Shown here: positions 4,894-25,594 of the stretch, piece after piece
Layout of the letters: every line of letters starts with the position of its first letter
Position numbering within the stretch: the first letter of the stretch is position 1
Assembly (NCBI GenBank): GCA_026393865.1
Contig: JAPKZI010000233.1
Location: 1 to 50,383 of the forward strand
DNA from: Candidatus Aminicenantes bacterium
GTDB lineage: Bacteria > Acidobacteriota > Aminicenantia > Aminicenantales > UBA4085
Direction of reading: 5' to 3'
Length of the DNA stretch: 50,383 nucleotides
Position numbers and translations under genes: made by a program
The notes under the pieces: model-generated
Database searches by the model: none
Told to the model about the DNA's origin: nothing
The model's input: the letters and a program-made list of their open reading frames with translations, nothing else

Positions 4894-5763
4894 TCAGAAT
4901 ATGAATCCGGCCGCGAGGCTGAGGGTCAGGCCTCCCAGGCCGGCCTCGTCTTCGAGCGGCTTGATTTTGATCGAGGTGTACTTCACCCGCGCATCGATTC
5001 CGAGGAAACTCAAACGGGCCGAAAGGCCTCCGCAGACCGCGAATCCGTAACCCCATCCATCGACCGTGCCGATGACGTTCTTTTCCTGGTACTTGCACCC
5101 GGCCCCTCCGGCTCCGACGTACGGCATGATGGACCCGGACAGGGCATGAAAGATGAGCATCGCGTCTATGGGATAGACCGTCATCGTCGTCTCATCTTGA
5201 GTCACGGTCAAGAGGCCCTTTTTATTGAAATAGCCGCCCTCCAAAGACAGATAGAACCCGCCCGCCACTCGAAACCGGATTTCTCCGCCCAAAACGGAAC
5301 CGCTCCCATAGATCGTTTTGAAGATCGCATCGCTCGGCGCGAACGACCCGTATCGGCCCAAGATCATCATCGAGGGCCGAGGACGCTGGATCCCGGCCGC
5401 GGGGGGCGGACTTGGCTGAGGCGCCGGTTTGGCCGCGACGGGGCTGACGACGGCGGCCTGTGGGACGCCCGCCGCCGGTTTGGCCGCGACGGCGTTGACG
5501 ACATCGACGACGCTGCTGTTGATGTATCCGGAGATCGTCGCCCCGCTCTCATCGGTGACCATGATCTCAAACCAATCCCCGATTTTCTGGCGCGATTCGA
5601 GCATCGTGCCGAGATTCACCTGCTTGACGATGGCGCTGGTCATGTCCGGCTCGGCCCGGACATTGGCCGCTTGAACCTTGACCTTCAACATTTTCGTTTC
5701 CTGAGCGCGCAGCCCCACGGCCGCGATGATCGACACAGCGAGGAACACGATTATTTTTCTCAT
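4894..5763 (-). CDS. Outer-membrane beta-barrel protein (OmpA/OmpW-like, ~8 strands) with N-terminal bacterial SH3 domain and Pro/Ala linker
   Basis: Signal peptide; SH3b-like ANVRAEP..GDWFEI..GYINSS; linker with a duplicated VAAKPA; amphipathic strands, PYVGAG, C-terminal Phe (BAM signal). Confidence 0.8.
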   Translation of the reverse strand: MRKIIVFLAVSIIAAVGLRAQETKMLKVKVQAANVRAEPDMTSAIVKQVNLGTMLESRQKIGDWFEIMVTDESGATISGYINSSVVDVVNAVAAKPAAGVPQAAVVSPVAAKPAPQPSPPPAAGIQRPRPSMMILGRYGSFAPSDAIFKTIYGSGSVLGGEIRFRVAGGFYLSLEGGYFNKKGLLTVTQDETTMTVYPIDAMLIFHALSGSIMPYVGAGGAGCKYQEKNVIGTVDGWGYGFAVCGGLSARLSFLGIDARVKYTSIKIKPLEDEAGLGGLTLSLAAGFIF

Positions 5764-5777
5764 GGCCTGTTCCTTAC

Positions 5778-7712
5778 CTACTTCACGACCGTGGCTTTGA
5801 CGCTTTCCACGCCGCCCTCATCGACCGACGTGACGCCATACGTCTGTTCCGTCTTGGGCGCCATCCGGTAGCGGCAAGCCCGCGTGTCGCCAGGGAGTTC
5901 GCCGAGCTGGACCCAGCTGTTTCCCACCATTTGATAAACGCGATACGCCGCGATCGTCAGCCCGGCATTCGCCGCGTTGGCCTCCCAGCTCAAGTCGATC
6001 AGGGACTCGGACTGGGTCACCGAACGGTTCGTCAGCCGGACGGCGGTCAGATTGGACGGCGGGCTGACCAGCTTGAAGTTCGCCGTCACGCTCTTGTCGC
6101 GGTCCATATGAATGATGACGGGATTCCCCTTGCCGCTGGCGTCCCCCGACCAGCCCGTTAAGGCGCAGTATTGAGCCGGCACGGCTCGAACCTCGGCATC
6201 GGCTCCGGTGCTGTGCGTATAGGCTCCGGGGACAGGAGATGTCGTCCCGAGGGAGGCGTTGTTGACGGCGATTTGGAGGGTTTTTCCGCCGAAAGAGATG
6301 TTGCAGGACATATCGACGCCCGCGCTCATGATGGTGTCGAGGTAAGCGTTCGTCAGGGAGCCGTCATAGGCGTTGCTGTTAGGGACGGTGTTCTTGTTGA
6401 ACGTCTTTCCCGGGACGTAATAATCGCCGGCGTTGGCGGCCAGGTTCTTCTCGATTTGTTCGAGGCCATCCGCCTCCATTAACCGGACAAGCTTGTGGGC
6501 GGAATAGGAATTATCGTAGAGAAAGTTATTCGAGGCGTTCAACGTGGCGTCGACGTGCCAGATAAGAAGCCCGTCGGCCGGGAGTCCCGTGTCGTTATTG
6601 ACGCGGTATCTGTTCTGGACAATGAAGAATTCCTTGAAGGGACTGGCCAGGCTGTAGTTAGGCCAGAAGATGACCGCGTCCTGATGGCTCCCCGTCGGGC
6701 GGAGAACGTAGGTCCGGCTTCCGGAGCTGCAGACTTGCGGCGTGAGCCAATCGAGGAGCATCTTGCTGAAGCCGTTATGGTCGCCGCTGGTGGCCATGAT
6801 GTCGAGGCCGCCGACCCCGCCTCTGGGTCCGACCGCGTCGTCGTAGTCATATAAATCCGGAAGGCCGATCGCATGGCCCGTCTCATGAATCATCGTCTTC
6901 GGGCTGAATGTTCCGGGATAGGGATTCGCTTCCCACTGCCAGGAATACCTCGCTCCGCTGAACTGCTTGCCGTCGAGGGTGTACGATGAGCTCCAGCCGG
7001 TGTAATAACCCCACCAGAAATTGGACCAGCCGTTATCCGGGCCCGTCCAAACAACAAGGAAATAGTCGATCACCCCATTGTTGTCGTTGTCATATTGGGA
7101 AAAGTCGTGGCCCTGACCATCAAAGTAATTCAGCGCTTCCTTGATCAGATTTTCGCGGCCTGCGGTTGTCTGGGCGACGCTGGCCCGCGTGGCGCTCGGT
7201 CTGTACCACCCCAGCGTCGATCCCAGGATCTCGAGCTGGTTGTAGGACGAGCGGCGGTAAAAGTTGCGCATACTTTCGTAGGGGTAGCCGGAGCCCCCGT
7301 CTCCAAAGACCTTGCCGTTGATCGAATCCTTGGTCTGGCTCGATGGATAATCCGAGAAATCTATGAGCAGGACGAACACTTTGTTGTTTCCCTTGTTGCG
7401 CAGTCCCGGCCTGATCCCCGACGGAAACGCCGGCAGGATGCGGTCGATCTCGGCGTCGGACAGGCCGAGCGACTTGAGGCGAAGGCGTTCGGCCCTGATC
7501 TGAAACTCTTCGAGGAGCCCCGGTTCCACTTGGTCGTTGCCCAGGGCTTTGGCGAACGCGATGCGCTGCGCCAGCGTGCCGTCGAGACGGTATCGGGCCA
7601 ACTGCTGCCTTGTCGGCGGTTCCAACGCGAACAGACCGCCCGATATCGCGAAGATGAGGGCGAGCAGGATCGGGCCATTGATTCTTGGGCTTATTCTAAG
7701 CAAGGGTTTCAT
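5778..7712 (-). CDS. Secreted M6 (immune inhibitor A-like) zinc metalloprotease + divergent InlB B-repeat + C-terminal FN3-like domain
   Basis: Signal peptide; VLLIDFSD, FYRRSSY, DFSQYDNDNNGVID, HETGHAIGLPDLYD, GLLIWHVD, LMEADG; GWSGDASG...MDRDKSVTANF repeat. Confidence 0.88.
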   Translation of the reverse strand: MKPLLRISPRINGPILLALIFAISGGLFALEPPTRQQLARYRLDGTLAQRIAFAKALGNDQVEPGLLEEFQIRAERLRLKSLGLSDAEIDRILPAFPSGIRPGLRNKGNNKVFVLLIDFSDYPSSQTKDSINGKVFGDGGSGYPYESMRNFYRRSSYNQLEILGSTLGWYRPSATRASVAQTTAGRENLIKEALNYFDGQGHDFSQYDNDNNGVIDYFLVVWTGPDNGWSNFWWGYYTGWSSSYTLDGKQFSGARYSWQWEANPYPGTFSPKTMIHETGHAIGLPDLYDYDDAVGPRGGVGGLDIMATSGDHNGFSKMLLDWLTPQVCSSGSRTYVLRPTGSHQDAVIFWPNYSLASPFKEFFIVQNRYRVNNDTGLPADGLLIWHVDATLNASNNFLYDNSYSAHKLVRLMEADGLEQIEKNLAANAGDYYVPGKTFNKNTVPNSNAYDGSLTNAYLDTIMSAGVDMSCNISFGGKTLQIAVNNASLGTTSPVPGAYTHSTGADAEVRAVPAQYCALTGWSGDASGKGNPVIIHMDRDKSVTANFKLVSPPSNLTAVRLTNRSVTQSESLIDLSWEANAANAGLTIAAYRVYQMVGNSWVQLGELPGDTRACRYRMAPKTEQTYGVTSVDEGGVESVKATVVK

Positions 7713-7884
7713 TAGACCTCCTTTAATCCGTGTTCATGATTTCATGGGAAAAGCTTCCGGCTTGTCAATGAATGGACATCGAAGTCCTGAAATGCGAATA
7801 AGAAAAATCAAGGAGCATTCAGCCACGCATTTCTTATAATCCCTTTGAGAGGAGGAAATTTTTTTGAAACGAAAAATTCCGGGC

Positions 7885-7933
7885 AAAAAAAAGGGGGCGG
7901 GAACCGAATTCTTCCGAATCCGGTTCCCGCCCC
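7885..7933 (-). terminator. Intrinsic terminator, also a family D palindrome
   Basis: GGGGCGGGAACCGAATTC-ttcc-GAATCCGGTTCCCGCCCC next to A8 (U8 on minus strand), just downstream of the 7970-8698 gene. Confidence 0.8.
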
Positions 7934-7969
7934 TGGCATTTCAGGTCTCTTTGACTCCTAAACGAATTC

Positions 7970-8698
7970 TTATCTCTTCTGGATCGCGTCCATGCTCAGC
8001 GTCGCCGTTTTGGTAAAGCCGGCGGGCACGCTATAGACGCCGGCAGGCGCGTCCTTCTTCGTGATCTCGATGACCTCGGTCGTCGAGCGCATCTTGGCGC
8101 CCATGATATCGCCGGACGTTTCGGTGGCGATCTGGAAGCCCTTGATCTTGGCCATTTCCTTGACCGAGGCCTCGTCCATCATCATCTGGCCTTTGACCAG
8201 GTTCCCCCAGATCTTGGCGTTGAAGGCGTTGGCGTCGAAGGGCACGTCGGTCGCCGCCCAGACCTTCATCTTCAAGGCGAACATGGTCATGCTCAAATTG
8301 ACGTCATAACCGGTGCAGGTCCACGAGCCGACCTTCTTGGTCTCGGTCGTCGGGGCGACGGTCGCGCTCATCTTCATCATGCCGGCGAAGGCCGCCGCTT
8401 CGGGAGGAAGGAGCTTGGACATATCGAGGGGCAGGGCCGTCTCGACGTAGGTCTTGGCTTTGGTGTTGATGATATAGCCGAGGTTCTTCTTCAGGTCGAT
8501 GATGAACGCTTGGTCGCCCCCGAGGGAGGCGAACTTATCGTCGGCGATCCATTGTTCGGTGATTCCGTCCTGGGCCGGCGTGTTCTGGCCCATGATGGAC
8601 ATCGCATCCGAATGAGTTTTGGTCTTGACGTAGACGTCCGCGCTCAAAGAGAGCGTGACGGCCAGGACCAGCACGAGGCAGGCAAAAAACTTTTTCAT
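7970..8698 (-). CDS. Exported DUF4412-like protein
   Basis: Signal peptide; IIDLKKN.GYIIN...KTYVE, TTETKKVGSWTCTGY, KVWA, EVIEITKKDAPAGVYSVPAGF. AGGAG SD. Confidence 0.7.
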   Translation of the reverse strand: MKKFFACLVLVLAVTLSLSADVYVKTKTHSDAMSIMGQNTPAQDGITEQWIADDKFASLGGDQAFIIDLKKNLGYIINTKAKTYVETALPLDMSKLLPPEAAAFAGMMKMSATVAPTTETKKVGSWTCTGYDVNLSMTMFALKMKVWAATDVPFDANAFNAKIWGNLVKGQMMMDEASVKEMAKIKGFQIATETSGDIMGAKMRSTTEVIEITKKDAPAGVYSVPAGFTKTATLSMDAIQKR

Positions 8699-8852
8699 GA
8701 CAAATTCTCCTTTATAATTTTCGTCCGATAAAGGACATTTCAGATAGAATTATTATAGCAAACTTCCCAGAATAACACAAGGCTTCCCGAGGCTGGAGCC
8801 AAAACGCGAGTCGGGTGGGTCAAGCAGCCTCGTTCCGGGCCGGTTTACGGAC

Positions 8853-8881
8853 TTGACAATTGTCGAGTAAATCTATAGAAT
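8853..8881 (+). promoter_or_regulatory. sigma70 promoter with an overlapping palindromic operator-like site
   Basis: TTGACA-17-TAGAAT; ACTTGACAATTGTCGAGT (8851-8868) is a near-perfect palindrome. Confidence 0.7.
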
Positions 8882-8929
8882 AAAGATAATCGGGTGTCCG
8901 ATAAATCAAAAAGAAAGGATGGAGATCCC

Positions 8930-9463
8930 ATGACTTTGAAAAGAATCTCAGCGATTGTGTTCGCCGTGTTATTCGTGTCTTCGCTCTCCCTCGCTCAAAC
9001 CACTGGGTGGTTCAAAAAGGGCGGGCTTTACATCACTCCCCAGATCGGCCTCAACAGCTTGAGCATCCCCCTTGGGGCGAGCGTCGAATACGGCCTGACC
9101 GAGAACATCGGCATCGGCGGAACGGTAACGACCTGGGGTTGGAATGTCGACCCTTACGGAAAATATAGGATCATTATTGTTTCCGCGGAAGCGCTATACC
9201 ATCTCACGAATCTCAAGCTCGACAAGATTGATCTCTACGGAGGAGCCGGACTGGGTTTTGGAATCAATTCCTTCTCCTTTAATAGCGGTTGGAGTTCCGA
9301 TTATTGGAGTCCCGGTGGCTCGGGCCTCGACCTGGGGATCATTATCGGTGGGCGCTATTATTTCTCGCCCAAAATGGCCATCAGCCTCAGGATCATGAAT
9401 TCTCTCATCGGAAATTGGTCGACCGTCGGCGCCGCGCTTGGCGTCACCTTCGCCGTCAAATAA
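8930..9463 (+). CDS. Small outer-membrane beta-barrel protein
   Basis: GGAG SD, signal peptide, alternating beta-strands (LGASVEYG, DLYGGAGLGF, IIGGRYYFS, GAALGVTF). Confidence 0.75.
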   Translation: MTLKRISAIVFAVLFVSSLSLAQTTGWFKKGGLYITPQIGLNSLSIPLGASVEYGLTENIGIGGTVTTWGWNVDPYGKYRIIIVSAEALYHLTNLKLDKIDLYGGAGLGFGINSFSFNSGWSSDYWSPGGSGLDLGIIIGGRYYFSPKMAISLRIMNSLIGNWSTVGAALGVTFAVK

Positions 9464-9485
9464 GCGTCCTGACCTGAAAGCGAAT

Positions 9486-9527
9486 CCGGTCCTCGCGCTC
9501 ATCATGGGCGCGGGGGCCGGTTTTTTT
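9486..9527 (+). terminator. Intrinsic terminator
   Basis: CCGGTCCTCGCGCTCA-tca-TGGGCGCGGGGGCCGG followed by T7. Confidence 0.75.
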
Positions 9528-9568
9528 ATCCTTAGACAGGGACCTGGGATTGTGGTAAAAAAATTCCA

Positions 9569-10513
9569 GTGGCCAAACGAAAGAGCGTCCTCTTCCTTCT
9601 CAAGCTTCTCTTCAGCGCCGCCGTTCTCGCCTTCTTTTTTCTCCTGACCAGGACTTCGCTCAAGGACATCGGCCTCAAGCTCCGGGGAGTTTCCTGGGGG
9701 TGGCTGGCCCTGGCCTTTTCACTCCAGGGGCCCGGCCTTCTGATCAGCGCCCATCGTTGGCGGATCCTGGCCCGGGCCCAAGGCGACGACGTCCCCCTCC
9801 TCTTCCTAGTCAAGTCCTACCTCGTCGGGATGTTTTTCAACAATTTTCTGCCGACGCGCTTCGGAGGCGACGTCGTCCGCATCTGGGACGGCTCGAAATA
9901 CTCCAAGTCCCTCGTCAAATCCTCGGCCGTCGTCCTCGTCGATCGGGCCACGGGCATCATCGTCCTGTTTCTGTTCGCCCTGGTCGCGGCCCTTTTTCGC
10001 CTCGACATGGCCCGGGAGGTTCCGGTGATCTGGGCGGCGCTTGTCTTGGGTCTGATCGGGCTCGCCGGCGTGGTTTTTTTCTTCCTGCCCCTCTTCGGCC
10101 GATGGCTCCGGAAAATTCCCGAACGCGGCTTTCTGAAGCCGTTCAAACAAAAGGTCATCGACTTCCGGACGACGATCATCCTGTACAAGAACAAGCGGAA
10201 GGAATTCAGCCTGGCCACGGCCTGGGCCGTCCTTCTCCAGATGAACGTCATCCTCTTCTACTTCCTTATCGGCCGGGCCCTCCATCTGGCCATCCCCCTC
10301 CTCGATTACTTCATCTTCATCCCGCTCGTTCTCCTCATCCAGATCATCCCGATCACGATCAACGGACTCGGGCTCAGGGAAGGGGCTTATATCGAGATCT
10401 TCAAGTTCTACGGCATTCCGGCCGCATCCGCCTGGTCCTTCTCGATCATCGAAGTCGCCTTCGGCCTGATCCTCGGCTTGATCGGCGGCGCGATCTACGT
10501 TTCGCGAAAATGA
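9569..10513 (+). CDS. Lysylphosphatidylglycerol synthase TM / flippase-like (UPF0104) membrane protein
   Basis: Multi-TM; RWRIL, GMFFNNFLPTRFGGDVVR, VLVDR, IPITINGLGLRE. Confidence 0.85.
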   Translation: MAKRKSVLFLLKLLFSAAVLAFFFLLTRTSLKDIGLKLRGVSWGWLALAFSLQGPGLLISAHRWRILARAQGDDVPLLFLVKSYLVGMFFNNFLPTRFGGDVVRIWDGSKYSKSLVKSSAVVLVDRATGIIVLFLFALVAALFRLDMAREVPVIWAALVLGLIGLAGVVFFFLPLFGRWLRKIPERGFLKPFKQKVIDFRTTIILYKNKRKEFSLATAWAVLLQMNVILFYFLIGRALHLAIPLLDYFIFIPLVLLIQIIPITINGLGLREGAYIEIFKFYGIPAASAWSFSIIEVAFGLILGLIGGAIYVSRK

Positions 10514-11682
10514 GATCCTCAAGAATTCTGGTGATCGCCGCCGCGGGGCTTGTCTTCGGTTTCGGCCGGCCGGGCCCCGTCGTCGCCCGGCCGCAGGAGG
10601 CGACCGAGTCCCAAAAACGCCTGGTGCGGATCAAAGAGGAGATCGACAGCCTCAAGAGCAAGATCGCCGATGAGGAGAAGAAAGAGAAGACGATGCTCTC
10701 CGCCCTGGACCGGATCGGATTCACGAAAAGCCTGATCCGCAACGAGCTGGCCCTCTTCGCCATGCAGCTCGACAAGAACCGGCTCGAGCTGGCCGCGATC
10801 AAGAAAAGCATCCCGGACCTTCAGGCCAGCCTGGAGAAGGAAAGGGAGGCCCTGGCCCGGATCCTGGTCACCCTCTACAAATACGGCCGGTTCAATCTCG
10901 TCCGGTTCATCCTCGGCTCCGCCGACCTCCGCTCGCTCGTCGGCGAGAACAAGAACCTATCCGTCCTGGCCGCCTCCCAGGAGCGGATGATCGCCGATTA
11001 CGCCCGAAACCTGACCGAGCTCGGGAACGCCGTCGAAAATCTCAAAGCCAAGGAGGGCGACATCCAGGCCCTGATCAAGACGACCGGCGCGAAAAAAAGT
11101 TCGCTCGACGCGGAAGAAAGGAAGAACCGGGCGCTCGTCGGCGAAATCCAATCCAACCGGAAGTTCCACGAACAGACCATGGAGGAACTGAGCGTCCAGG
11201 CCCGCCAGCTCCAGGACCTTCTCCAAAAGTTCGAAAAGCAGGCGCCCGTCCTGCCCTTTCCCCTGATCCCGTTCACCGAGAAACGGGGCAAGCTCCCCTG
11301 GCCGGCCGGGGGCAAGCTCGTCCAGCGGTTCGGGCTCCAGCGGCATCCCCAGTTCAACACCGTGACCATGAACAATGGGATCGAGATCGCCCCCCCTGAG
11401 GACGACCTGACCGTCCGGGCGGTGCACGGCGGCAAAGTTGTCTTTGCCGATTATTTCCAAGGCTACGGCAACCTCATCATCATCGACCACGGGCTGACCT
11501 ACTATTCCCTCTACGGCCATTGCGCGGAGTTCAAGGTCCGGACGGGGGACTTCGTCAAGGCCGACCAGCCGATCGCGGCGGCGGGCGATACGGGGTCGAT
11601 GCTGGATATCCGATCCCTCTACTTCGAGATCCGGTTCAAGACCAAGCCCCTCGATCCCTTGCAATGGCTGTCGCGAAGATGA
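10510..11682 (+). CDS. envC: Murein hydrolase activator EnvC family (coiled coil + degenerate M23 domain)
   Basis: True start ATG 10510 (ATGA overlap). Signal peptide, long coiled coil, GKLPWP, NNGIEI, GYGNLIIIDHG, SLYFEIR, PLDPLQWL. Confidence 0.85.
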   Translation: MRSSRILVIAAAGLVFGFGRPGPVVARPQEATESQKRLVRIKEEIDSLKSKIADEEKKEKTMLSALDRIGFTKSLIRNELALFAMQLDKNRLELAAIKKSIPDLQASLEKEREALARILVTLYKYGRFNLVRFILGSADLRSLVGENKNLSVLAASQERMIADYARNLTELGNAVENLKAKEGDIQALIKTTGAKKSSLDAEERKNRALVGEIQSNRKFHEQTMEELSVQARQLQDLLQKFEKQAPVLPFPLIPFTEKRGKLPWPAGGKLVQRFGLQRHPQFNTVTMNNGIEIAPPEDDLTVRAVHGGKVVFADYFQGYGNLIIIDHGLTYYSLYGHCAEFKVRTGDFVKADQPIAAAGDTGSMLDIRSLYFEIRFKTKPLDPLQWLSRR

Positions 11683-11715
11683 TACAATCCGCCCGCTTTG
11701 GATGAACGATCGAGG

Positions 11716-12861
11716 ATGTTGAGAAAGCGCCAAGCCCGGGTCCTTCTCGTCACGGCCATCGTGGCCGCGGTCCTTTTCTTCTGCCTCGAAAAGAGCGTCC
11801 TGCCCGGCGGCCCGCAGAGGGGATCGTCCGGGCGGGACTTCAGTCCCCTGGCGACCGTCATCCGCTACATCAAGAGCGATTATCTCGAAGAGCCCGACCC
11901 AAAAAAGACCATGGAGGGGGCCTTCCAAGGCCTCGTCAACGCCCTCGACATTCTTTCCAGCTATCTCGACAAGCCGGCCGTCGCCAAATACACGAATCCC
12001 CAGAAGCTCCAGTTGAAAGACATCGGAGCCATCATCTACAAGCGCTACGCCGCCTTCCCGCTCGTCATCGGGATCGTCGCCAATTCTCCGGCCGAAAAGG
12101 CCGGGATCAAGATCGGCGATTACTTGAGCGCGCTCGACGAGCGCTCGACGCTCGTCTGGAGCCTGACGGAGATCAACCTCTATCTCAAGGACGGTGCGGC
12201 CGTTCCGGTCAAGCTCCGGCTGATCCGCGACAACTCGACCAAGGAAATGATGGTCATCCGCTCCGACATCTATCCCAAGACGCTGACCGCGACCCCCCTG
12301 AGCGGGACGGCCGGGATCGTTCGGATCCATCATTTCTATCCTTCGCTCGTCGCCGAATTTAAAACCTCCCTCCTCCCCCGGCTCAAAGGGCAAAAAGCTC
12401 CGTTGATCATCGATCTGAGAGATTGTCATGAGGGAGAGATGAGCGAAGCCCGGGCTTTTTTGAATCTTTTCCTCAAGACGGACAAGATCGGCTATCTCGA
12501 ACGAAAGGGCGGCCTGAAAGACTATTGGGCCTGCCCCGAAGACTCCCCGCTCGAATCACTCCCCGTCATCGTCTGGGTCAACCAGGCCACGATGGGCCCG
12601 GCGGAACTGGCGGCCGGCGTTTTAAAGGACCTCAAAAAAGTCAAGGTCATCGGGCTATCGACCCCCGGGCTGACGGGAAAGCAGGACCTGTTCGCTTTGG
12701 GCAACGGCGACGCCCTGCTCCTGACCACGGGCGTCTTCTGCTTCAACTCGGGAGAAAAGCTCTGGAGCAAGGGGGTGGCGCCCGACGTGAAGCTCGACCT
12801 GGATAAAACCGACGACAAAGCATATACCGAAAAGACCCTCGGCCTCCTCTCCGGCCACTGA
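11716..12861 (+). CDS. S41/CtpA-like PDZ protein, predicted catalytically inactive
   Basis: SPAEKAGIKIGD (PDZ), IIDLR, GVAPDV. The Ser and Lys catalytic motifs are replaced (TMGPAE, TPGL). Confidence 0.8.
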   Translation: MLRKRQARVLLVTAIVAAVLFFCLEKSVLPGGPQRGSSGRDFSPLATVIRYIKSDYLEEPDPKKTMEGAFQGLVNALDILSSYLDKPAVAKYTNPQKLQLKDIGAIIYKRYAAFPLVIGIVANSPAEKAGIKIGDYLSALDERSTLVWSLTEINLYLKDGAAVPVKLRLIRDNSTKEMMVIRSDIYPKTLTATPLSGTAGIVRIHHFYPSLVAEFKTSLLPRLKGQKAPLIIDLRDCHEGEMSEARAFLNLFLKTDKIGYLERKGGLKDYWACPEDSPLESLPVIVWVNQATMGPAELAAGVLKDLKKVKVIGLSTPGLTGKQDLFALGNGDALLLTTGVFCFNSGEKLWSKGVAPDVKLDLDKTDDKAYTEKTLGLLSGH

Positions 12862-17860: not shown

Positions 17861-17869
17861 GGAGAATGA

Positions 17870-18850
17870 TTATTTATCGGCCCCGAGCGGGTTGGGCTTG
17901 AGGATTTTGATAAAGCTCTTTTTCTTGAGATTGACGAGGAACTCGTTCAGTTTCAGGGCCTGTTTCTCGCCGAAGAGCCTGTTTTCGATCGTTTTTCGGG
18001 CCTCTTCGAACTCCAGCTGACGGCTGTCCTTCTTGTCCTCCGTCTTCATCAGATACCAGCCGTTTTTGGCCCTCACCCAGGGCGAGACCTCGCCCTTTTT
18101 CATTTTATCCAGCGCCTGCTGGAGCGTCGGATCAAGCTGGCCTTTCTTCATCGTCCCGAGATCGCCCTTGGACTCCTTGAGAGGCTCATCCGAAAACGTC
18201 CCGGAGATCTCCTCGAAATTCGCGCCGGCCTTGATCTTGTCCTCGATCTCTTTCTTCTTCGTCTCAAGCGCGGCCGCGTCCGCGTCGACGGCGCTAAGAT
18301 AAACCGCCCGGATCTTATACTCTTCGGGCTCGACGAACTCCGCCTTGTGCTTCTTGTAGAAATCGACGATCTCGGAGTCGTCCAGGACGATCGAGCGGTT
18401 CACTTCGGTGTCGACCACGATCCGCTGCATGATCATTTCCTCCAACTGCTTCAGCCAAGGATCCCATTCCAGCCCTTGGGCCTGAAGGGCCCGTTTCAGG
18501 TCGTCGTCGCTCGAAAGGTTGTTCTCCTTCTTGATGTTCTCGATCGTCGATTTCACCTGGTCGGCGACATTGTAGTTCTTCTCCTTGGCCATCTGGAGCA
18601 GGAGCATGTCGGTGATCATGGCGTCCATCAATCCGGGCTTGAGCGACTCCATGTATTTGTCGAGCTCCGCCCCCTGCAGCTGGGCCCGGGCCGTCTGAAC
18701 TCGTGAGTCATATTCGCGTTTGTAATGGGATAAGGTGATCACCTCGTCGTTGACGATGGCCACGATCTCCTCGACGACCTCCTGGGCCAGGCCGAGGGCG
18801 GCGGCCATGCCGAGAGCGGCCAACAACAGCCTCGTTCTTTTTTTGATCAT
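17870..18850 (-). CDS. SurA-like chaperone / parvulin peptidyl-prolyl isomerase
   Basis: Signal peptide, IVAIVNDEVIT (SurA_N), rotamase domain FEEISGTFSD..KGDLG..GEVSP..GWYL. Confidence 0.85.
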   Translation of the reverse strand: MIKKRTRLLLAALGMAAALGLAQEVVEEIVAIVNDEVITLSHYKREYDSRVQTARAQLQGAELDKYMESLKPGLMDAMITDMLLLQMAKEKNYNVADQVKSTIENIKKENNLSSDDDLKRALQAQGLEWDPWLKQLEEMIMQRIVVDTEVNRSIVLDDSEIVDFYKKHKAEFVEPEEYKIRAVYLSAVDADAAALETKKKEIEDKIKAGANFEEISGTFSDEPLKESKGDLGTMKKGQLDPTLQQALDKMKKGEVSPWVRAKNGWYLMKTEDKKDSRQLEFEEARKTIENRLFGEKQALKLNEFLVNLKKKSFIKILKPNPLGADK

Positions 18851-19824
18851 GATTCGATCCTTTGGTATGTAAAGGGCAGATTTTCGGGGAGCGCCTTCCA
18901 GTCCATGGAGGCCTTCAGTTCTTCGAGGTGCGCGGCGATAGCCTCTTGGTTTTTCTCATCGGCGAGCTTGGTCCGGATGAACGGCGCGGCGTCGGCCGGA
19001 CCGACCAGGCGGGCTTCGAATTTCCTGTCCAGACGGAAAATGTGGAAGCCGTAGGTGGACTCGACGACCCGGCCGATCTCCCCCTCTTTCATGGGGAAGA
19101 TGACCTTCTCCAGCTCGGGCGGGAGCTGCCCGGCGCTGAACACGCCCATGACCCCGCCTTTCGACGCCTCCGGCCCGGTCGAGGCCGTCCGGGCCATAGC
19201 CCGGAACTCCTCTTCCGAGGCGTTCTTCAGCCGGTCCCGGACCTCGCTGGCCCGGCCCGCCGAGGCGAGCAGGATCTGGCTGACCTGGACCTTCTCCGGC
19301 ATCAGATAGTCACCCTTGTGCAGGCTGTAGTAAGCAGCGATCTCTTTGTCGTCGACCCGGAGATCCTTGACCAGAAGGAAGAGGTATTTCTCGACGAGAA
19401 GTCTTTCGGTCAGGACCGCCTGGTCCGTCATCAGCGATTTATTGTCCTCGGTCCCCATGGAGATCTCGAGCTTTTTCAGGTAGCTCGCCTTCTCGCCGTC
19501 GCTCAAGGCGACGCCTCCGGCCTGGGCGCGTTTGATGAAGAGACGCTCCTCGATGAAGCTGTCATAGAGCCGGCTCAGCACGGCCGCCGAAAGCGAAGCG
19601 CTGGAGTCGCCGGCGGCGAGACGGACGTATTTATCGAAATCCGCGTTGGTGAAGGTCGTTCCCTCAACCTCGAGGATGATGCGGCCCCGCTTCTGCGGAT
19701 CGGCCGACGGCGATGGATCCGCCCCGGCCCCGCCACCGTCCTTGCGGCAGCCCATGGAAAGGAGAAAAAAAAGTCCTGCCATCACGGCCACGAGCACTTT
19801 CCGGGCGTTCCGATCGTCTCTCAT
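18847..19824 (-). CDS. Parvulin-type peptidyl-prolyl isomerase lipoprotein (PrsA-like)
   Basis: Lipobox-like SMG-C; VQVSQIL, S.GPEASKGGVMG, VVESTYGFHIF; lies downstream of mfd. Confidence 0.85.
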   Translation of the reverse strand: MRDDRNARKVLVAVMAGLFFLLSMGCRKDGGGAGADPSPSADPQKRGRIILEVEGTTFTNADFDKYVRLAAGDSSASLSAAVLSRLYDSFIEERLFIKRAQAGGVALSDGEKASYLKKLEISMGTEDNKSLMTDQAVLTERLLVEKYLFLLVKDLRVDDKEIAAYYSLHKGDYLMPEKVQVSQILLASAGRASEVRDRLKNASEEEFRAMARTASTGPEASKGGVMGVFSAGQLPPELEKVIFPMKEGEIGRVVESTYGFHIFRLDRKFEARLVGPADAAPFIRTKLADEKNQEAIAAHLEELKASMDWKALPENLPFTYQRIES

Positions 19825-19856
19825 CTTTATGATTATCAATTCATTATACGATAATT

Positions 19857-22800
19857 CTATAACTCCTTCAAGACGGCGATCGTTTCACGGAGGAAATCCT
19901 CGTCCCGCTTGGCCTGAAGGGCCAGGCTCATCACGCCCTGGGGGGTCAGGGACCCGGCGTAGCGGTTGAGGAGCGCCGTCATCCGCCCGAGCTGGGCGGC
20001 CGTTGAAGGCAGGAATTTGAAGATGACCCGTCCATCCATCCGGTCAACTGCCTTGATTTTCAGGCGCTGGGCCAACAGCTTGATCCGGCCGTACTGGCAG
20101 AGGTTGCGCACGCTCCGCGGCGGGGGGCCGAAGCGGTCCTGGATCTCGTCTTCGACGGCTTGGATCTCCTCCAAAGCGTCCGCCGACGAGATCCGCTTGT
20201 AGAGGTTGAGCCGGAGATTCATTTGGGGCAGGTAGTCTTCCGGGATCTGGATGTCAACCTTGAGGTTGATTTCGCTCTTGACCTCCTCGACGATCTCGCC
20301 TTTGAGCTCGCGGATGGTCCGTTCGAGGAGGTGGACGAAATATTCGAAGCCGACGGCCTCCATCGTTCCGTGCTGTTCGGCGCCGAAGACATTGCCGGCG
20401 CCGCGGATCTCCAGGTCTTTCATGGCCAGTCGGAATCCGGAGCCGAGCTCGCTGAATTCTTTGAGCGCCTCAAGACGGCGTTTGGCCAGCGGCGTCAGCT
20501 CGTTGAAGGGGGGAACGAGAAAGTAGGCGAACGCCTGGCGGGACGAGCGGCCGACCCGGCCGCGGAGCTGGTACAGCTGGGCCAACCCGAAATGGTCCGC
20601 CCGGTGGACGATGAGCGTGTTGACCAGGGGGATGTCGATGCCGTTCTCGATGATCGTCGTCGAGACCATGACATTATAGGCCCGGTCGATGAAATCGATC
20701 ATCCGTTTTTCGAGCTCGAGGGGACGCATCTGGCCGTGAAGGGTCACCACCCGGGCCTGAGGGACCCATTTCTCGATGAGTCCGGCCATGTGCTCCATCT
20801 CCTCGATCTTGTTGAAGATATAATAGACCTGTCCGCCGCGCGCGAGCTCCTGCTTGACCGCGGTCGCGATCAGCTTCGGGCTGAACGTGGTCACGACCGT
20901 GTGGACGGCCAGCCGGTCCTTGGGCGGGGTCTCGATCAGGCTGATGTCGCGCAGTCCGGCCAGGGAAAAGTTGAGAGTCCGGGGGATGGGCGTCGCCGTC
21001 AGGGTCAGGACGTCGATGTGCGCCTTCATCTGCTTGATCTTCTCCTTGTGCTTGACGCCGAACCGCTGCTCCTCGTCGACGACGAGAAGCCCCAGGTCGA
21101 AGAATTCGACGTCCATGGAGAGGATCCGGTGGGTGCCGATGACGACGTCGACCAGCCCCTTTTTCACGTCCTCGACGATCTTCTGCTGTTCGGCTTTCGA
21201 CTGGAGCCGGGTGAGTTCCGCGACGCGGACGGGGAACAGAACAAAGCGGCTCGAGAACGTCTTCATGTGCTGGCTGGCCAGGACGGTGGTCGGGCAGAGG
21301 ACCGCGACCTGCTTCCCGTCCATGACCGCCTTGAACGCGGCGCGCATGGCGACCTCGGTCTTGCCGTAGCCCACGTCGCCGCAGAGCAGCCGGTCCATGG
21401 GGGAATCCGCTTCCATGTCGGCCTTGATCTCCCCGATGGAGCGGTGCTGATCTTCGGTCTCCTCGAATTCGAACGTCTTCTCGAACTCGGTCTGCCACTG
21501 CCCTTCGGGGCTGAAGCCGAAGCCCTTGAGGGCCTTGCGCCGGGCGTACAGTTCCAGCAGCTCCTTGGCCAGTTTTTCGACGGCTTTCTTCGTCCGCGTC
21601 TTGGTCTTCTGCCAGGTATTGGCGCCCAGTTTGTCGAGGGGAGGAAGAATCGCTCCGACCTGAGCGTATTTCTGGACCAAATTCAGGTCCTCGACGGGGA
21701 CGAAGAGCTTGTCCTCGTCGCGGTAATGGAGCTCCATGAACTCCCGCGGCCGTCCGTCCACGTCCATTCTGAGGAGCCCGTCGAACCGGCCGATCCCGTA
21801 GTCCGCGTGGACGATATAATCGCCGGCCCTGAGGTCCTGGAACTGGGTGAGCGAGGGCCGGACCGAGGGGCGGCTGACGACGACCTTCTCCTCGGTAATG
21901 ATGTCGGACTCGGCGAAGAACGAGATCTTCTCCCTCGGGAATCCGAAGCCCCGGCCGAGGTCGCCGACGACGAGGAGGATCTCCCCGCCCCGGGGCGCCT
22001 CGAGCGGCGAGTCCGCTTCGCGGCTTTCGATATCGTTCTGGGCGAGGAGTCCGGCGATCTTTTTCCGGACGGCCGGACTCGTCAGAAAAATATAACAGCG
22101 GTCTCGTTCCCGCTGAAGGCGGCGGACGTAATCGAGGAAGAAGGGGATCTTGTTGTCGAAGCGCGGGACGGACTGGAACGAGAAGTGGAACTCCGGCTCT
22201 ATCCCCCCCGATTCGAGAGCTTCCGAACGGACGGCCGTCTCCCGGATCTCCCGCCACAACGAATCGGGAGAGAGATCGATCCTTTCTTCCCCGGGCCGCG
22301 GATCGACCTGAGCCTCATCCCATTCCTTCTCGACGTCCTCCGCGTGATCGATGATGAAGACCGGGTCGTCGAGGTAGGCGGTAAAAGGCACGGACGAGAC
22401 GGCCGGACCCGCGCTTTCCAGGAGCGAGGGGATCAAGGCGCTGTCCAGACGGCGGAGGGATCGCTGCGTCGAGGGATCGAATTCCCGGATCGAGGCGATC
22501 TCGTCTCCGCTGAATTCGACGCGGTACGGCGCCTTCTGCCAGGGCGGGAAAACGTCCACGATCCCCCCTCGGCCGGCGTATTCGCCGCGGAATGAAATGA
22601 GGTCCTCGCGGACATAGCCGTATTCGTCCAAGGTCCGCAGGAAGCGGTCCCGCCCATGAAGGGCGCCCTTGTCCAACCTCAGGAAGAGCCCGGGGAGATC
22701 CGGGGGAGCGGGGAAAGGCCGGAGAAGGCCGAAGAGATTGGTTACGATGAGCGACGGCCGCCGGTGAAGGAGGTCATAAAAGAAGCGCATCCGGGACGAG

Positions 22801-23105
22801 ATCGCTTCGAGGGAAGGGGGCGCGTCCCGGGAGGGGCCCTCCGTCAAAGGAGGAAGGGCTTTGGCCCGCTTGGGAGACCGGAGCTGGGCCAGGAAAAACA
22901 GGCTCTGTTCTTCCATCCCGGTCAGGGACAATTCCGCGGGCTGGATGTAAACGATGGTTTTCGGGAGTGTCTGGGCCAACGTGGCCAGAAAAAAAGGCTT
23001 GGCCGCCGCGGCGAGGCCGGAGATGCGGAGGCCTCGGCTCTCCTTCTCCAGTTCCCGGACGAGCGCCTTGAACTCGGGAACGTCTTTGAGAAAGTCGAGG
23101 CTCAT
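19857..23105 (-). CDS. mfd: Transcription-repair coupling factor
   Basis: RGGIVDVF, CarD/TRCF RID (GDYIVH.DYGIGRF), GDVGYGKTE, DEEQRFG, TATPIPRT, QLRGRVGR, C-terminal TRCF domain. Confidence 0.97.
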   Translation of the reverse strand: MSLDFLKDVPEFKALVRELEKESRGLRISGLAAAAKPFFLATLAQTLPKTIVYIQPAELSLTGMEEQSLFFLAQLRSPKRAKALPPLTEGPSRDAPPSLEAISSRMRFFYDLLHRRPSLIVTNLFGLLRPFPAPPDLPGLFLRLDKGALHGRDRFLRTLDEYGYVREDLISFRGEYAGRGGIVDVFPPWQKAPYRVEFSGDEIASIREFDPSTQRSLRRLDSALIPSLLESAGPAVSSVPFTAYLDDPVFIIDHAEDVEKEWDEAQVDPRPGEERIDLSPDSLWREIRETAVRSEALESGGIEPEFHFSFQSVPRFDNKIPFFLDYVRRLQRERDRCYIFLTSPAVRKKIAGLLAQNDIESREADSPLEAPRGGEILLVVGDLGRGFGFPREKISFFAESDIITEEKVVVSRPSVRPSLTQFQDLRAGDYIVHADYGIGRFDGLLRMDVDGRPREFMELHYRDEDKLFVPVEDLNLVQKYAQVGAILPPLDKLGANTWQKTKTRTKKAVEKLAKELLELYARRKALKGFGFSPEGQWQTEFEKTFEFEETEDQHRSIGEIKADMEADSPMDRLLCGDVGYGKTEVAMRAAFKAVMDGKQVAVLCPTTVLASQHMKTFSSRFVLFPVRVAELTRLQSKAEQQKIVEDVKKGLVDVVIGTHRILSMDVEFFDLGLLVVDEEQRFGVKHKEKIKQMKAHIDVLTLTATPIPRTLNFSLAGLRDISLIETPPKDRLAVHTVVTTFSPKLIATAVKQELARGGQVYYIFNKIEEMEHMAGLIEKWVPQARVVTLHGQMRPLELEKRMIDFIDRAYNVMVSTTIIENGIDIPLVNTLIVHRADHFGLAQLYQLRGRVGRSSRQAFAYFLVPPFNELTPLAKRRLEALKEFSELGSGFRLAMKDLEIRGAGNVFGAEQHGTMEAVGFEYFVHLLERTIRELKGEIVEEVKSEINLKVDIQIPEDYLPQMNLRLNLYKRISSADALEEIQAVEDEIQDRFGPPPRSVRNLCQYGRIKLLAQRLKIKAVDRMDGRVIFKFLPSTAAQLGRMTALLNRYAGSLTPQGVMSLALQAKRDEDFLRETIAVLKEL

Positions 23106-23216
23106 GGGACCAACGTCCCATTATACTAAAAATTCGCGGGCACTTTCCGAATTCCAGGCGGAGGCACGACGAAAGGGGGCTCTTTCCGGATTTGTTATGT
23201 GTCCGAAATGCTCCGG

Positions 23217-23747
23217 TCAGAAGATGATGCCGGCGCCGAGTTCGATCCCTCCGACGTCGAACTGGAAATCCGCCGGTTTCATCTTGCAGGACGAATAGGC
23301 GACATGGACGTCGATGCCGAAGCCCTTGGCCAGATAGAGCGTCAGCCCGGCTTTCCCGACGAATCCGACGCCGTTCCCGCTCACCTCGCCGATTTCGTTC
23401 GATTCATTAAAGAGATTATATCTGGCCCCGGCGCCGATATAGGGCTCGATCTTCCCCGTCAGGAACCTGTAGCGCAGCCCCGCTCCGATCGGGATGAGGG
23501 TCAGCTTGGTTTCCTCTTTGGAGTAGGACAAACTTCCCGTTTTGGCGTAATAACCGCCGTCCAGCCAGAGGTCCAGCCCCTTGAAGAGGTTGAACGCAAT
23601 TTCCGCACCGTACTTCCAGCCCCCTCCGTAAATGGATTTGAAATCCTTATCCGACGGCGAAAAATAGATCGCTTTGAGGCCGACCGAGGCCGATGCCGCG
23701 ACGGAGATCAGGCCGGCCATCAGTCCGGCGATGATGATTTTTTTCAT
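23217..23747 (-). CDS. Small outer-membrane beta-barrel protein, paralog of the barrel in 4894-5763
   Basis: AAGGAG SD then ATG 23747; signal peptide; FSPSDKDFKSIYGGG, PYIGAG, terminal GIIF. Confidence 0.82.
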   Translation of the reverse strand: MKKIIIAGLMAGLISVAASASVGLKAIYFSPSDKDFKSIYGGGWKYGAEIAFNLFKGLDLWLDGGYYAKTGSLSYSKEETKLTLIPIGAGLRYRFLTGKIEPYIGAGARYNLFNESNEIGEVSGNGVGFVGKAGLTLYLAKGFGIDVHVAYSSCKMKPADFQFDVGGIELGAGIIF

Positions 23748-23770
23748 GGTTCTATCTCCTTCCCCGCCGC

Positions 23771-25594
23771 TCAATGGATCACAATGACGGCCGGATCGCC
23801 TTCCCGCGGCTCATTATTCACGGCGACGATGTGATAGGTGTATTCCTTGGCTCCGTCCACTCCCCGATGCCAGAGGGTGAAGGTATTCGCGTCGAGCGAG
23901 GCGACCTCCGTCCGCTGCCCGTTGTCGACCTGGTAGATCTTATAGCTTAAGATGTTCACGTTGTTGGGATTGGCCGCGAAGGTGATGATATTGATGTATT
24001 CGGCCTGGGAGAGGGAACGGTTCAGGACTTTTTCGCCCGCCGCCTCCGCCGGAGCATAGATGATCCGTTGGAAGACCGCCGCTATGGATTTGTCCCGGTC
24101 CAAGGTGATGTCGATCGGATTCTGCGAGCCCGTGGCACTTCCCGACCAGTTGAGGAACCGGTAATTCGCGTTCGGCAGGGCCGTGACCCGGACGATGGAA
24201 TCGGTGTTGTAAGTGTAAATCCCCGGAGCGGGATTAGTCGTCCCTCCCGAGCCGGCCGAGATCGTTAGCGTGTTCGTCCCCGCTTCCGAGCGATAATTGG
24301 AGATGACCGTTTTGATCTCACGAAGCGATCGGGCGTTGTCTCCGTCAGCGGCATTGCCGGTCGGCGTTCCTTTATAATTGACGCTGGGGTTCGAGAAATA
24401 TTCGACCTGGGTGGGAATGACTCCGCCGAAATCGTCCTTATAGGACATGATCGAACAGTACTTGTTGCCGTCGTTACCCACCCAGCGCCACCCGGCCGAA
24501 TAGGAGAAAAGTCCATTCCAAGTTTCACCTGGTTGACCTTTCCGGTGGCCGCAGCCCATGTTGTGACCCATTTCGTGGATCGTCGTGGTCGTCCAGCTGA
24601 TCTGCTGGATCCGGCCCACGCTAAAAGCATAAGCGGGAGATCCCGCCGGGTTCAAGAGCAAGTAGCCGAGGCCGCCGTAATCATCCGTTTTCGTGAGCAG
24701 ATGGACCAGATCCGCCCCATAGGTATTCCGCCACGTGTGGACCTGGTCCAGATAGCCGTCATTGGGATTTTGGAGGCGGGCCAGGTCCGTGTTGGAATTT
24801 CCTGTATCCGCATAATCGATGAGAGCGGAATAGACCAGCCGCATGGTGATGTCGGTGAGGCTGTTGTCCATGCCCAGTTGGGCCAATTGCATCGCCAGCG
24901 AGACGTAATTATTGATCCCGCTCGCGGCGTTGGCGTAATCACGGGCGGCCGGCGTGTAGGGGAGCATGACATCGATCCGGGTCTTGGCGGCCGCGGGCGG
25001 CGCGGCTCCCAAAGGCGGCAGGACAGGCCCGGATGGAGATGACGAAGGTGGAATGAGCGGAGGGCCGCCGGGGAGAGAGACCCGGGCGCCCGGCGCGAAT
25101 TCCTGGATGATGTGGGTTTGCCCGCCCTCCACGCAGGAGATCTCGTATTCCCGCCGCTCGGGCAGGACGAGAAGGCCGAGCGACCGGCCTTTGTCCGAAG
25201 AGAGGAGCAGATATCCATCCGAATCCTGGATCCGGGCCCGGACGGCCAGGACGCCGTTGACGTCGGTCTCAACACGGTCGATCGTCCCGAGAGCGGCGCC
25301 GTCCTCGAACGGCGAAATAAAGAGCCGGTCGCCGACGGCCACGCCTCCATCCTCCGAAAGCAGGGGATTGATCGCTACGGCCCGATAGCGCGAAGCCTGA
25401 GGAGCTATAGGCTCGGCTCCCGCCCGCTCGGCGCCGGCGGCCGTGAACAAGGGGATCCATTTCGGCCCGTCGCTTCCGGGCGGCCGGCCTTTGACCTGCA
25501 TGTTCGCGAAAGAGGCGAAGGCCAGTCCGGCAATCAGCAAGATCCCCAGCATCAGATAAATTCTCGTTTTCGGAAAAAACGACATTCTCGGCAT
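23771..25594 (-). CDS. Secreted reprolysin-like (M12B-type metzincin) metalloprotease + InlB B-repeat + C-terminal FN3-like domain
   Basis: Signal peptide; IDVMLPYTPAA, RNTYGADLV, HEMGHNMGCGH, Met-turn SIMSY, FSNP, DNARSL; NWSGSATG...LDRDKSIAAVF. Confidence 0.88.
   Translation of the reverse strand: MPRMSFFPKTRIYLMLGILLIAGLAFASFANMQVKGRPPGSDGPKWIPLFTAAGAERAGAEPIAPQASRYRAVAINPLLSEDGGVAVGDRLFISPFEDGAALGTIDRVETDVNGVLAVRARIQDSDGYLLLSSDKGRSLGLLVLPERREYEISCVEGGQTHIIQEFAPGARVSLPGGPPLIPPSSSPSGPVLPPLGAAPPAAAKTRIDVMLPYTPAARDYANAASGINNYVSLAMQLAQLGMDNSLTDITMRLVYSALIDYADTGNSNTDLARLQNPNDGYLDQVHTWRNTYGADLVHLLTKTDDYGGLGYLLLNPAGSPAYAFSVGRIQQISWTTTTIHEMGHNMGCGHRKGQPGETWNGLFSYSAGWRWVGNDGNKYCSIMSYKDDFGGVIPTQVEYFSNPSVNYKGTPTGNAADGDNARSLREIKTVISNYRSEAGTNTLTISAGSGGTTNPAPGIYTYNTDSIVRVTALPNANYRFLNWSGSATGSQNPIDITLDRDKSIAAVFQRIIYAPAEAAGEKVLNRSLSQAEYINIITFAANPNNVNILSYKIYQVDNGQRTEVASLDANTFTLWHRGVDGAKEYTYHIVAVNNEPREGDPAVIVIH

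Follow-up and report, generated by a model that had tools for sequence, protein, structure and literature searches.

A C-terminal FN3-like tail and a neighbouring eight-stranded outer-membrane barrel as a candidate surface-anchoring module of the class Aminicenantia

The stretch of DNA analysed here (the window) is the whole of contig C51, 50,383 bp long, from the genome G000 of a Candidatus Aminicenantes bacterium (3.23 Mb in 240 contigs, 86% complete, approximately 61% G+C). It carries two genes for exported proteases of different families that end in the same type of C-terminal domain (CTD), and each of these is followed on the same strand by a gene for an outer-membrane barrel. Comparison of this genome with its relatives and structure prediction define two protein families, an adjacency between their genes that is conserved, the inheritance of the two as one unit, two folds, and a predicted interface at which covariation is found. 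The reading favoured here, and considered probable, is that tail and barrel form a cargo-and-dock module specific to the class Aminicenantia, in which the barrel serves as a non-covalent anchor for the enzyme at the cell surface. The computational checks run on the interpretation in the preliminary description came out in its favour, within the limits given below.

The four open reading frames (ORFs) of the two pairs were confirmed, all on the minus strand. These and their main features are the following (aa, amino acids; pLDDT, predicted local distance difference test):

4861..4884, minus strand: terminator-like hairpin with a T-run just 3' of the stop of barrel 1 (consensus scan only)
4894..5763, minus strand: barrel 1 (P0001), 289 aa, with signal peptide, SH3-like domain, Pro/Ala linker, 8-stranded barrel and C-terminal Phe
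4897..5373, minus strand: barrel domain of barrel 1, E 6.9e-62 against the barrel family profile
5778..7712, minus strand: cargo 1 (P0002), M6 metalloprotease of 644 aa, with signal peptide, M6 domain, InlB-B repeat (residues 480-548) and FN3-like CTD, Sec-exported
5781..6104, minus strand: FN3-like CTD of cargo 1, inside a 1292-bp segment (4877-6165) that is duplicated in the genome
23217..23747, minus strand: barrel 2 (P0003), 176 aa, with signal peptide and 8-stranded NspA/OmpA-like barrel
within 23217..23747, minus strand: loops L1-L4 of barrel 2 (residues 32-42, 73-78, 117-120 and 154-166), the predicted socket
23771..25594, minus strand: cargo 2 (P0004), reprolysin/Mep72-like metzincin of 607 aa from the ATG at 25594, Sec-exported, with InlB-B repeat and FN3-like CTD
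23774..24103, minus strand: FN3-like CTD of cargo 2, a 7-strand sandwich (AlphaFold model, pLDDT 90.2)
23993..24028, minus strand: A-B hairpin of the CTD of cargo 2, residues 523-534, VLNRSLSQAEYI, the predicted barrel contact, with the strongest covariation with the barrel

Protease and barrel are separated by 14 nt in pair 1 (5763 to 5778) and by 23 nt in pair 2 (23747 to 23771), as the preliminary description of this DNA had noted. A second terminator-like hairpin lies at 7894-7933, upstream of P0002, and none was seen within the 14-nt gap by the same consensus scan, a placement that fits a two-gene operon. The M6 domain of P0002 matches TIGR03296 at 4.2e-45 (NCBIfam scan) and its InlB-B repeat matches Flg_new_2 at 4.8e-7, while P0004 matches Reprolysin_5 at 4.5e-13 and Mep72-like at 4.1e-27 (Pfam and NCBIfam scans), with a GTG at 25627 likewise open as an alternative start. 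Both pairs are flanked by housekeeping genes (carB, mfd and two genes for SurA-like chaperones), and therefore each pair is a self-contained two-gene unit. A search of sequencing runs listed no RNA run, and each of the 20 DNA runs listed contains less than half of the sequence words sampled.

The tails of P0002 and P0004 align at 29% identity over 216 residues (E 8e-22), which bears out the earlier claim that an M6 and a reprolysin-like protease share a tail made of an InlB-B repeat and an FN3-like domain. The common tail consists of Flg_new_2 (the InlB B-repeat) and a terminal domain of approximately 100 aa. The AlphaFold model of this terminal domain, built from 48 sequences, is an FN3 sandwich, and FN3 domains head the list of its Foldseek matches, with template modelling (TM) scores of up to 0.69; no CTD of the T9SS (type IX secretion system) is among the top 50. 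Structure places the domain with FN3, and the sequence is divergent, Pfam fn3 being matched at 1e-5 in only 1 of the 48 cargo proteins. Searched against 1.84 billion representative sequences, the CTD profile returned 41,599 proteins at E up to 0.001, 13,268 at 1e-10 and 1,386 at 1e-30, counts that measure generic FN3 and not the CTD family, and that are not used here as a family size. The best 150 of those matches are nearly all giant multi-FN3 proteins, with repeated matches at profile positions ~35-105. The fact that generic FN3 arrays match only this part of the profile means that the first ~34 positions, which contain the hairpin predicted to contact the barrel, are what distinguishes the CTD family.

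The two window barrels are 44% identical over 150 residues (E 2e-33) and both end in Phe. They had been described as small and as paralogs along their whole length. The former is true of barrel 2 and not of barrel 1, which is enlarged by its SH3-like domain and linker; the latter is true of the barrel domains and not of the whole of gene 1. Barrel 2 matches PF13505 (OMP_b-brl) at 4.1e-10, with 40.5 bits against a cut-off of 28.7, and gives a weak OmpW match (Pfam); barrel 1 has no PF13505 match at E up to 0.1, despite its identity to barrel 2. The SH3-like domain of barrel 1 matches SH3_3 at 2.8e-5 with 24.6 bits, under the Pfam cut-off of 27, and homologues of barrel 1 have precomputed SH3_3/SH3_4 matches. 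The AlphaFold model of barrel 2, built from 36 orthologues (pLDDT 89.1), has eight strands, in line with the number first proposed. Its connections are short on one face (2, 5 and 2 residues) and longer on the other (11, 6, 4 and 13), where the first long loop is modelled as a short helix over the conserved motif PSDxxFKxIYG. The closest fold found by Foldseek is NspA (1p4t, TM 0.73), and the OmpA membrane domain, OmpW, OmpX and Ail are also matched, in a range of TM 0.62-0.73. With its signal peptide, eight strands, terminal aromatic residue and PF13505 match, the protein belongs to the OMP_b-brl / OmpA-OmpX-NspA group of outer-membrane proteins (OMPs). A search of the ESM Atlas with barrel 2 gave only generic OMP_b-brl clusters from several phyla.

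In some homologues the barrel is preceded by a further domain, SH3-like in G000 and AMIN, PKD or HlyD/biotin-lipoyl-like in relatives. Elsewhere in the class, in orders other than that of G000, barrels of this family form the C-terminal part of proteins of 690-1009 aa (L062:2778-5804, L065:723-3620, L064:5957-8032), the N-terminal parts of which match HlyD/biotin-lipoyl-like (membrane-fusion-protein) domains, and the genes cluster with CTD genes. Proteins with three to five tandem FN3-like modules (L063:1602-10670, L071:2329-12001) adjoin AMIN-domain barrel proteins of 463 and 477 aa.

Profiles made from the two window pairs were run against all six-frame ORFs of G000. The genome has eight full-length barrels and about a dozen proteins with a terminal FN3-like domain. 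Five of the eight barrels come immediately after a CTD gene on the same strand, two of them in the window and one each on contigs C132, C127 and C90, the last behind three tandem CTD genes. On C7, one more barrel and two CTD genes converge, 38 nt apart. The remaining two are orphans, one on C42, where it adjoins ftsK, and one on C99, where no CTD is found in the 354 nt upstream to the contig end. On C144, only the last three barrel strands are left (20139-20327) behind an M6-CTD gene, and this remnant looks like a decayed pair. The cargo heads in this genome are mutually unrelated: M6, reprolysin, papain C1 with a lectin-like domain, a BNR/sortilin propeller, DUF7948 with an SBBP propeller, GDSL lipase, metallophosphoesterase and domains of unknown family.

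The pairing extends beyond this genome. All 41 genomes of the order that were searched (G000 and 40 relatives from nine families) carry both the barrel and the CTD family. Among the best 150 of 235 barrel matches and the best 150 of 417 CTD matches in the order, a barrel was taken as paired when a listed CTD ends no more than 700 bp upstream of it on the same strand; by this measure at least 42 of the 142 listed barrels outside G000 are paired, in at least 30 of the 40 relatives, and five more listed barrels, one of them in G000, are convergent. At nine of ten named Aminicenantes loci from a species-level genome collection, found with an ortholog-alignment search pattern specific to one subfamily, a CTD ORF lies directly upstream of the barrel. 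For five complete or near-complete relatives every match was listed (barrels at E up to 1e-10), and 12 of their 27 barrels immediately follow a CTD gene on the same strand, two of the 12 being decayed pairs. The chance expectation of such an adjacency is near 1e-4 per barrel, by simple arithmetic that assumes ~10 CTD ends per 4 Mb. It is clear that the pairing of CTD and barrel is far above chance and that it is not universal. Decayed-looking pairs, in which a CTD fragment stands beside a truncated or stop-containing barrel, were seen in two relatives (G014:C1:4275124-4275686; G039:C1:7048-7598).

The module had also been proposed to be specific to its lineage, and the distribution of the two families agrees with this. 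Among 120 genomes sampled evenly from the phylum, the CTD (E up to 1e-10) is present in 8/8 genomes from other orders of the class and in 2/112 genomes of other classes, of which one (G101) has 7 matches and the other is marginal. Strong barrel matches have the same distribution, and 12 further genomes have only weak, generic ones. Adjacent pairs are found in six of the eight class members from other orders (G048, G067, G083, G112, G125 and G149). The co-occurrence of CTD and barrel across the phylum is that of a single clade, and so counts as one evolutionary event and not as many independent ones. A pair with a barrel 48% identical to barrel 2 was also found in L016, a record labelled 'uncultured Eubacteriales bacterium', an order of Firmicutes; this bin is probably mislabelled or mixed, and its CTD match ends at profile position 126, which suggests a possible frameshift.

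What stands in front of the tail varies widely. A Pfam tally of 48 non-redundant barrel-adjacent cargoes gave, as peptidase heads, Peptidase_C1 in 11, reprolysin in 6, M6 in 5, C10 in 2, S8 in 1 and M10 in 1, and among other domains Flg_new_2 in 21, Lectin_like in 14, sortilin/BNR in 3 and fn3 in 1. A database search with the tail returned 157 proteins, the heads of which include EEP nucleases, beta-lactamase-like domains, beta-helices and a GH5 cellulase. The idea that the catalytic domain changes and the combination of CTD and barrel is kept is also supported within G000, where C51 4877-6165 and C132 3490-4781 are 82.6% identical over 1292 bp (blastn). The duplicated segment starts inside the InlB-B repeat, spans the FN3 CTD, the intergenic gap and the SH3-barrel gene, and ends 17 nt past the barrel stop. 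Upstream of it stands an M6 protease on C51 and a papain-C1/lectin protease on C132. The presence of this duplicated segment behind unrelated proteases means that tail and barrel were copied or recombined as one piece onto different enzymes.

CTD and barrel also diverge together. Barrel and CTD distances in 48 cognate pairs are correlated (Mantel test, Spearman rho 0.68, reached in 0/2000 permutations), a correlation that could be explained by shared descent alone. For the 22 pairs with an InlB-B repeat, rho is 0.78 between barrel and CTD, 0.46 between barrel and InlB-B repeat, and 0.37 between FN3 domain and InlB-B repeat; the bootstrap difference between the first two is 0.31 (0.015-0.565). 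The CTD, therefore, follows the barrel more closely than it follows the InlB-B repeat beside it in the cargo protein.

A complex of the two proteins was predicted from barrel 2 residues 20-176 (36-row alignment) and the P0004 tail, residues 437-607 (27-row alignment), with the alignments unpaired. The complex scored 0.88 (0.86, 0.88 and 0.88 in three runs) and the best of three controls 0.00; at least 98% of the contacts agree between runs, with a pLDDT of at least 93 for the partner. The mark used for this score is reached by 58/80 solved complexes and by 2/110 mismatched pairs, which is a rough guide here, custom alignments having been used. The predicted contacts on the barrel are residues 35-36 and 39-40 in loop 1, 73-76, 80 and 82 at loop 2, 113-122 at loop 3 and 158-163 in loop 4, and on the CTD residues 523-532, 534 and 575. 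In the model, residues 523-534 run from the end of strand A through the A-B turn into the beginning of strand B, and this hairpin sits in a mouth made by the four loops of one barrel face, touching the loop end without being threaded through. The rule for 8-stranded OMPs is that the N- and C-terminus and the short turns lie in the periplasm, with the longer loops outside, and the predicted socket would therefore face outward. The N-terminal additions of some barrels, expected in the periplasm, fit such an orientation.

Covariation is a separate line of evidence, given that the complex prediction received unpaired alignments. Across the 48 cognate pairs, the 25 best predicted contact pairs have a mean mutual information (MI), after average product correction, of 0.155, against 0.000 +/- 0.027 in a column-shifted null, in which the observed value is reached by 2 of 16,376 shifts. 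When only one partner is shifted, it is reached by 0/158 shifts of the barrel and by 1/102 shifts of the CTD. Twelve of the 15 strongest inter-protein MI pairs involve CTD residues 525-531. In the barrel, the interface columns show higher conservation than the other columns (2.43 versus 2.02 bits, one-sided p 0.008). On the CTD side, N525 (83%) and E532 (85%) bracket a variable stretch, which might resemble a specificity-determining turn.

On the favoured reading, enzymes and binding proteins of many families, ending in the divergent FN3 domain and often with an InlB-B repeat before it, would be exported by Sec. The next gene, probably co-transcribed, would provide an 8-stranded OmpA/NspA-type barrel, also exported by Sec and then inserted by the beta-barrel assembly machinery (BAM); Omp85/BamA homologues are present in G000. 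The four short, relatively conserved loops, assigned as extracellular, would make a socket, into which the A-B beta-hairpin of the FN3 tail (consensus xxNRSxxxxEYxN) would enter, holding the enzyme non-covalently at the surface. There would be roughly one anchor per cargo, with the tight gene spacing giving matched amounts of the partners. On some barrels the N-terminal periplasmic SH3-like or AMIN domains may tie the anchor to the cell wall. The enzyme would reach the outside by another route, for example a system like the type II secretion system (T2SS), and would then be captured by the barrel through the FN3 hairpin, and orphan barrels and barrel-less CTD proteins may pair in trans. That the two proteins do bind, that they do so on the outer face, and that the cargo has by then crossed the outer membrane by such a route is what we infer from the computed results.

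A T2SS-like cluster is indeed present on C92, with T2SSF, T2SSE, a PilM-like protein, T2SSM_b and a secretin, and a PilQ secretin is encoded on C107. The secretin of the C92 cluster (L072:8387-10558; C92 ~53386-55557), of 723 aa, has TPR repeats at its N-terminus and, unusually for a secretin, a Cohesin domain (PF00963, 3.2e-8) at its C-terminus.

Several observations weigh against an anchoring module of this kind. The module itself does not explain how a folded enzyme passes the outer membrane. The preliminary description had called the barrel dedicated to its enzyme, and in the five complete or near-complete relatives this is true of roughly one in two barrels and one in three CTD genes, and not of the remainder: 2/27 barrels are convergent within 150 nt, 3/27 have a CTD only at 1.2-2.3 kb, and 10/27 have no CTD match within about 3 kb. 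In one relative (G014) a barrel accompanies only ~4 of 12 CTD genes. The FN3-like module also occurs as three to five internal tandem copies in some proteins, and hence is not solely a terminal tag. Within G000 alone the correlation between barrel and CTD distances is absent (5 pairs, rho 0.10, p 0.39), and related sequences enter into the all-pairs Mantel and MI tests. The raw MI is weaker than the corrected one, 7.8% of shifted sets reaching the observed value, and in the CTD the interface columns show no higher conservation than the other columns (2.23 versus 2.28 bits, p 0.49). The complex score is a measure of model confidence, and part of it could be memory of the solved OmpA-nanobody complexes 9fzc and 9fzd, which are among the Foldseek matches of barrel 2; the A-B hairpin, however, is not known to be the loop set used by antibody-like binders. 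Finally, the outward direction of the socket is assigned from the textbook topology of 8-stranded OMPs.

The rival that survives best, which we nevertheless regard as unlikely, makes the barrel a secretion accessory, in the manner of a split autotransporter. Passage of the cargo through the outer membrane would depend on the barrel, for example by BAM folding the barrel around the hairpin, and anchoring would be only the end state. The gene order, passenger before barrel with a gap of 14-36 nt, is that of the domains in autotransporters, the predicted complex has the hairpin entering the mouth of the barrel, BamA homologues are present, and T9SS markers were not found in G000 (at 86% completeness and with control genomes silent). 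This role is rated lower because the lumen of an 8-stranded barrel is too narrow for a polypeptide, as established for OmpA and OmpX, because in the model the hairpin meets only the loop end and is not threaded, and because many CTD proteins have no barrel of their own. Moreover, the T2SS-like cluster could export folded cargo, and no cargo-barrel fusion was found, which is weak evidence (the search for longer barrel forms gave one protein of 350 aa). It is also conceivable, and in our view improbable, that the pair is a complete minimal two-gene device for export and display, in which BAM would fold the barrel around the FN3 hairpin and thereby carry the folded or folding enzyme outward, with the hairpin and loop residues acting as a cargo-barrel specificity code. 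If true, this would be the smallest known outer-membrane protein-export partner. An anchoring and a secretion role cannot be told apart from the present evidence.

The barrel might instead be an operon partner that does not bind the enzyme, that is, an ordinary OmpA/OmpW-like structural protein or small-molecule channel co-expressed with hydrolases for envelope stability or product uptake. The OMP_b-brl and weak OmpW matches and a fold nearest to NspA, OmpA and OmpW are what such a protein would show, its SH3-like and AMIN additions recall the wall tether of OmpA, and the 10/27 barrels that stand alone agree with it. We nonetheless find this account doubtful, on several grounds. The partner is set by the tail and not by the chemistry of the enzyme, as proteases, propellers and other proteins all have it; one duplicated segment contains both CTD and barrel; the CTD follows the barrel more closely than it follows the domain beside it; and an interface is predicted, with silent controls and with the covariation concentrated there. 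In addition, conservation is higher in the barrel loops than elsewhere in the barrel, which is unusual for OMP surface loops.

Protease-inhibitor gene pairs such as Mep72-BamI, where Mep72 is encoded beside its inhibitor, and serralysin-Inh are known, and P0004 is Mep72-like (4.1e-27) and many cargoes are proteases; yet a periplasmic role, in which the barrel or its unfolded precursor would bind the tail to keep hydrolases inactive or tethered under the outer membrane, is very improbable, since the predicted contacts are with the tail and not the catalytic domain, non-protease cargoes exist, the partner ends in Phe, matches OMP_b-brl and is a membrane barrel, and the contact face is the long-loop face, which to our knowledge is external in all solved 8-stranded OMPs. 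A metzincin-inhibitor pair in the strict sense of Mep72-BamI or serralysin-Inh was rejected, given that the partner covaries with the tail and is predicted to bind it, and that the heads belong to at least eight unrelated families.

Among known systems, the anchoring module most recalls the T9SS. Type-B CTD proteins of the T9SS are reported to be anchored at the surface by binding PorP/SprF-like barrels encoded next to them, with PorE as the wall-associated partner (PMC9143113). On that account, both systems have a conserved C-terminal beta-sandwich tail on diverse cargo and an adjacent cognate outer-membrane barrel, in both the cargo is proposed to be held non-covalently at the surface, and the part of PorE in binding the wall has its counterpart in the SH3-like and AMIN domains fused to Aminicenantes barrels (PMC9143113). 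The likeness to the logic of T9SS type-B that had been drawn at the outset holds for the arrangement of tail and barrel, the parts being unrelated. The Aminicenantes barrel is an 8-stranded OMP_b-brl protein and not PorP_SprF, and its host belongs to the Acidobacteriota, class Aminicenantia. PF11751 (PorP_SprF) has no match in the barrels and none in G000 (86% complete, control genomes silent), T9SS CTD models have no match in P0002 and P0004 at E up to 0.1 (NCBIfam), and SprA/GldM (PF14349, PF12081) have no match in G000 (86% complete, where the controls gave no valid positive). CTD and barrel follow the logic of T9SS type-B CTD/PorP, with components that are unrelated to those of that system and that belong to another phylum.

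The barrels of Slam systems belong to DUF560, occur in Proteobacteria and act as translocons. Slam or type XI systems are likewise reported to have cargo-barrel gene pairs in which the cargo is recognised through a C-terminal beta-rich domain (PMC12282271). In contrast, the tail of Slam cargo is an 8-stranded barrel domain, whereas in Aminicenantes it is the membrane partner that is an 8-stranded barrel and the tail is FN3; the Pfam scan gave no DUF560 match in the barrels. Type Va autotransporters share the order of passenger and barrel and a passenger segment that enters the barrel, but the Aminicenantes proteins are two polypeptides, the barrel has 8 strands and not 12, and in the model no linker passes through the pore; PF03797 has no match in the window barrels at E up to 0.1. 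Classical 8-stranded OMPs (NspA, the OmpA N-domain, OmpX, Ail and OmpW) have the same fold, OMP_b-brl domain and C-terminal Phe, and a wall-binding module in some members. Unlike these, the Aminicenantes barrels have short, conserved loops with motifs such as PSDxxFKxIYG, carry the wall-binding module N-terminally and not C-terminally, and are systematically paired with CTD cargo genes; we know of no dedicated, adjacently encoded protein ligand of a classical 8-stranded OMP. The GlyGly-CTERM/rhombosortase and PEP-CTERM/exosortase systems use C-terminal tags to keep secreted hydrolases at the surface, these being short transmembrane-helix signals with a dedicated processing enzyme, whereas in Aminicenantes a folded domain serves as the tag and a barrel as its partner, and there is no sign of processing. 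A literature search of partial coverage, taking in few subscription journals and no supplements, found no description of the CTD-barrel module.

The window contains a third CTD-bearing protein, which no barrel gene adjoins:

48052..50382, minus strand: metallophosphoesterase with a terminal FN3-like CTD at 48067-48387; the frame runs off the contig end

The two ORFs of ~1060 aa that lie 3' of the barrels were considered as a pair of paralogous large barrels and rejected, being carB (plus strand) and mfd. Directly 3' of mfd, which follows barrel 2, two genes for SurA-like peptidyl-prolyl isomerase chaperones stand in tandem (17870-19839, minus strand), probably without connection to the CTD-barrel module. 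A small OMP_b-brl-like ORF at 8894-9463 on the plus strand (189 aa, 26.5 bits, below the cut-off) does not belong to the barrel family, with an hhalign probability of 1.2%; it sits between pair 1 and a row of M23, S41 peptidase and polysaccharide-deacetylase genes.

Aminicenantes are abundant, uncultured degraders of organic matter in sediments, with many extracellular hydrolases. If the anchoring module is real, it would be a second, independently evolved answer to the problem that is solved by T9SS type-B CTD/PorP in Bacteroidota, and it would give a function to a large group of genes annotated as 'hypothetical OMP'. It predicts which Aminicenantes proteins would be displayed at the surface and, with a tag of ~100 aa and a barrel of ~160 aa, it would be a very small and portable display module.

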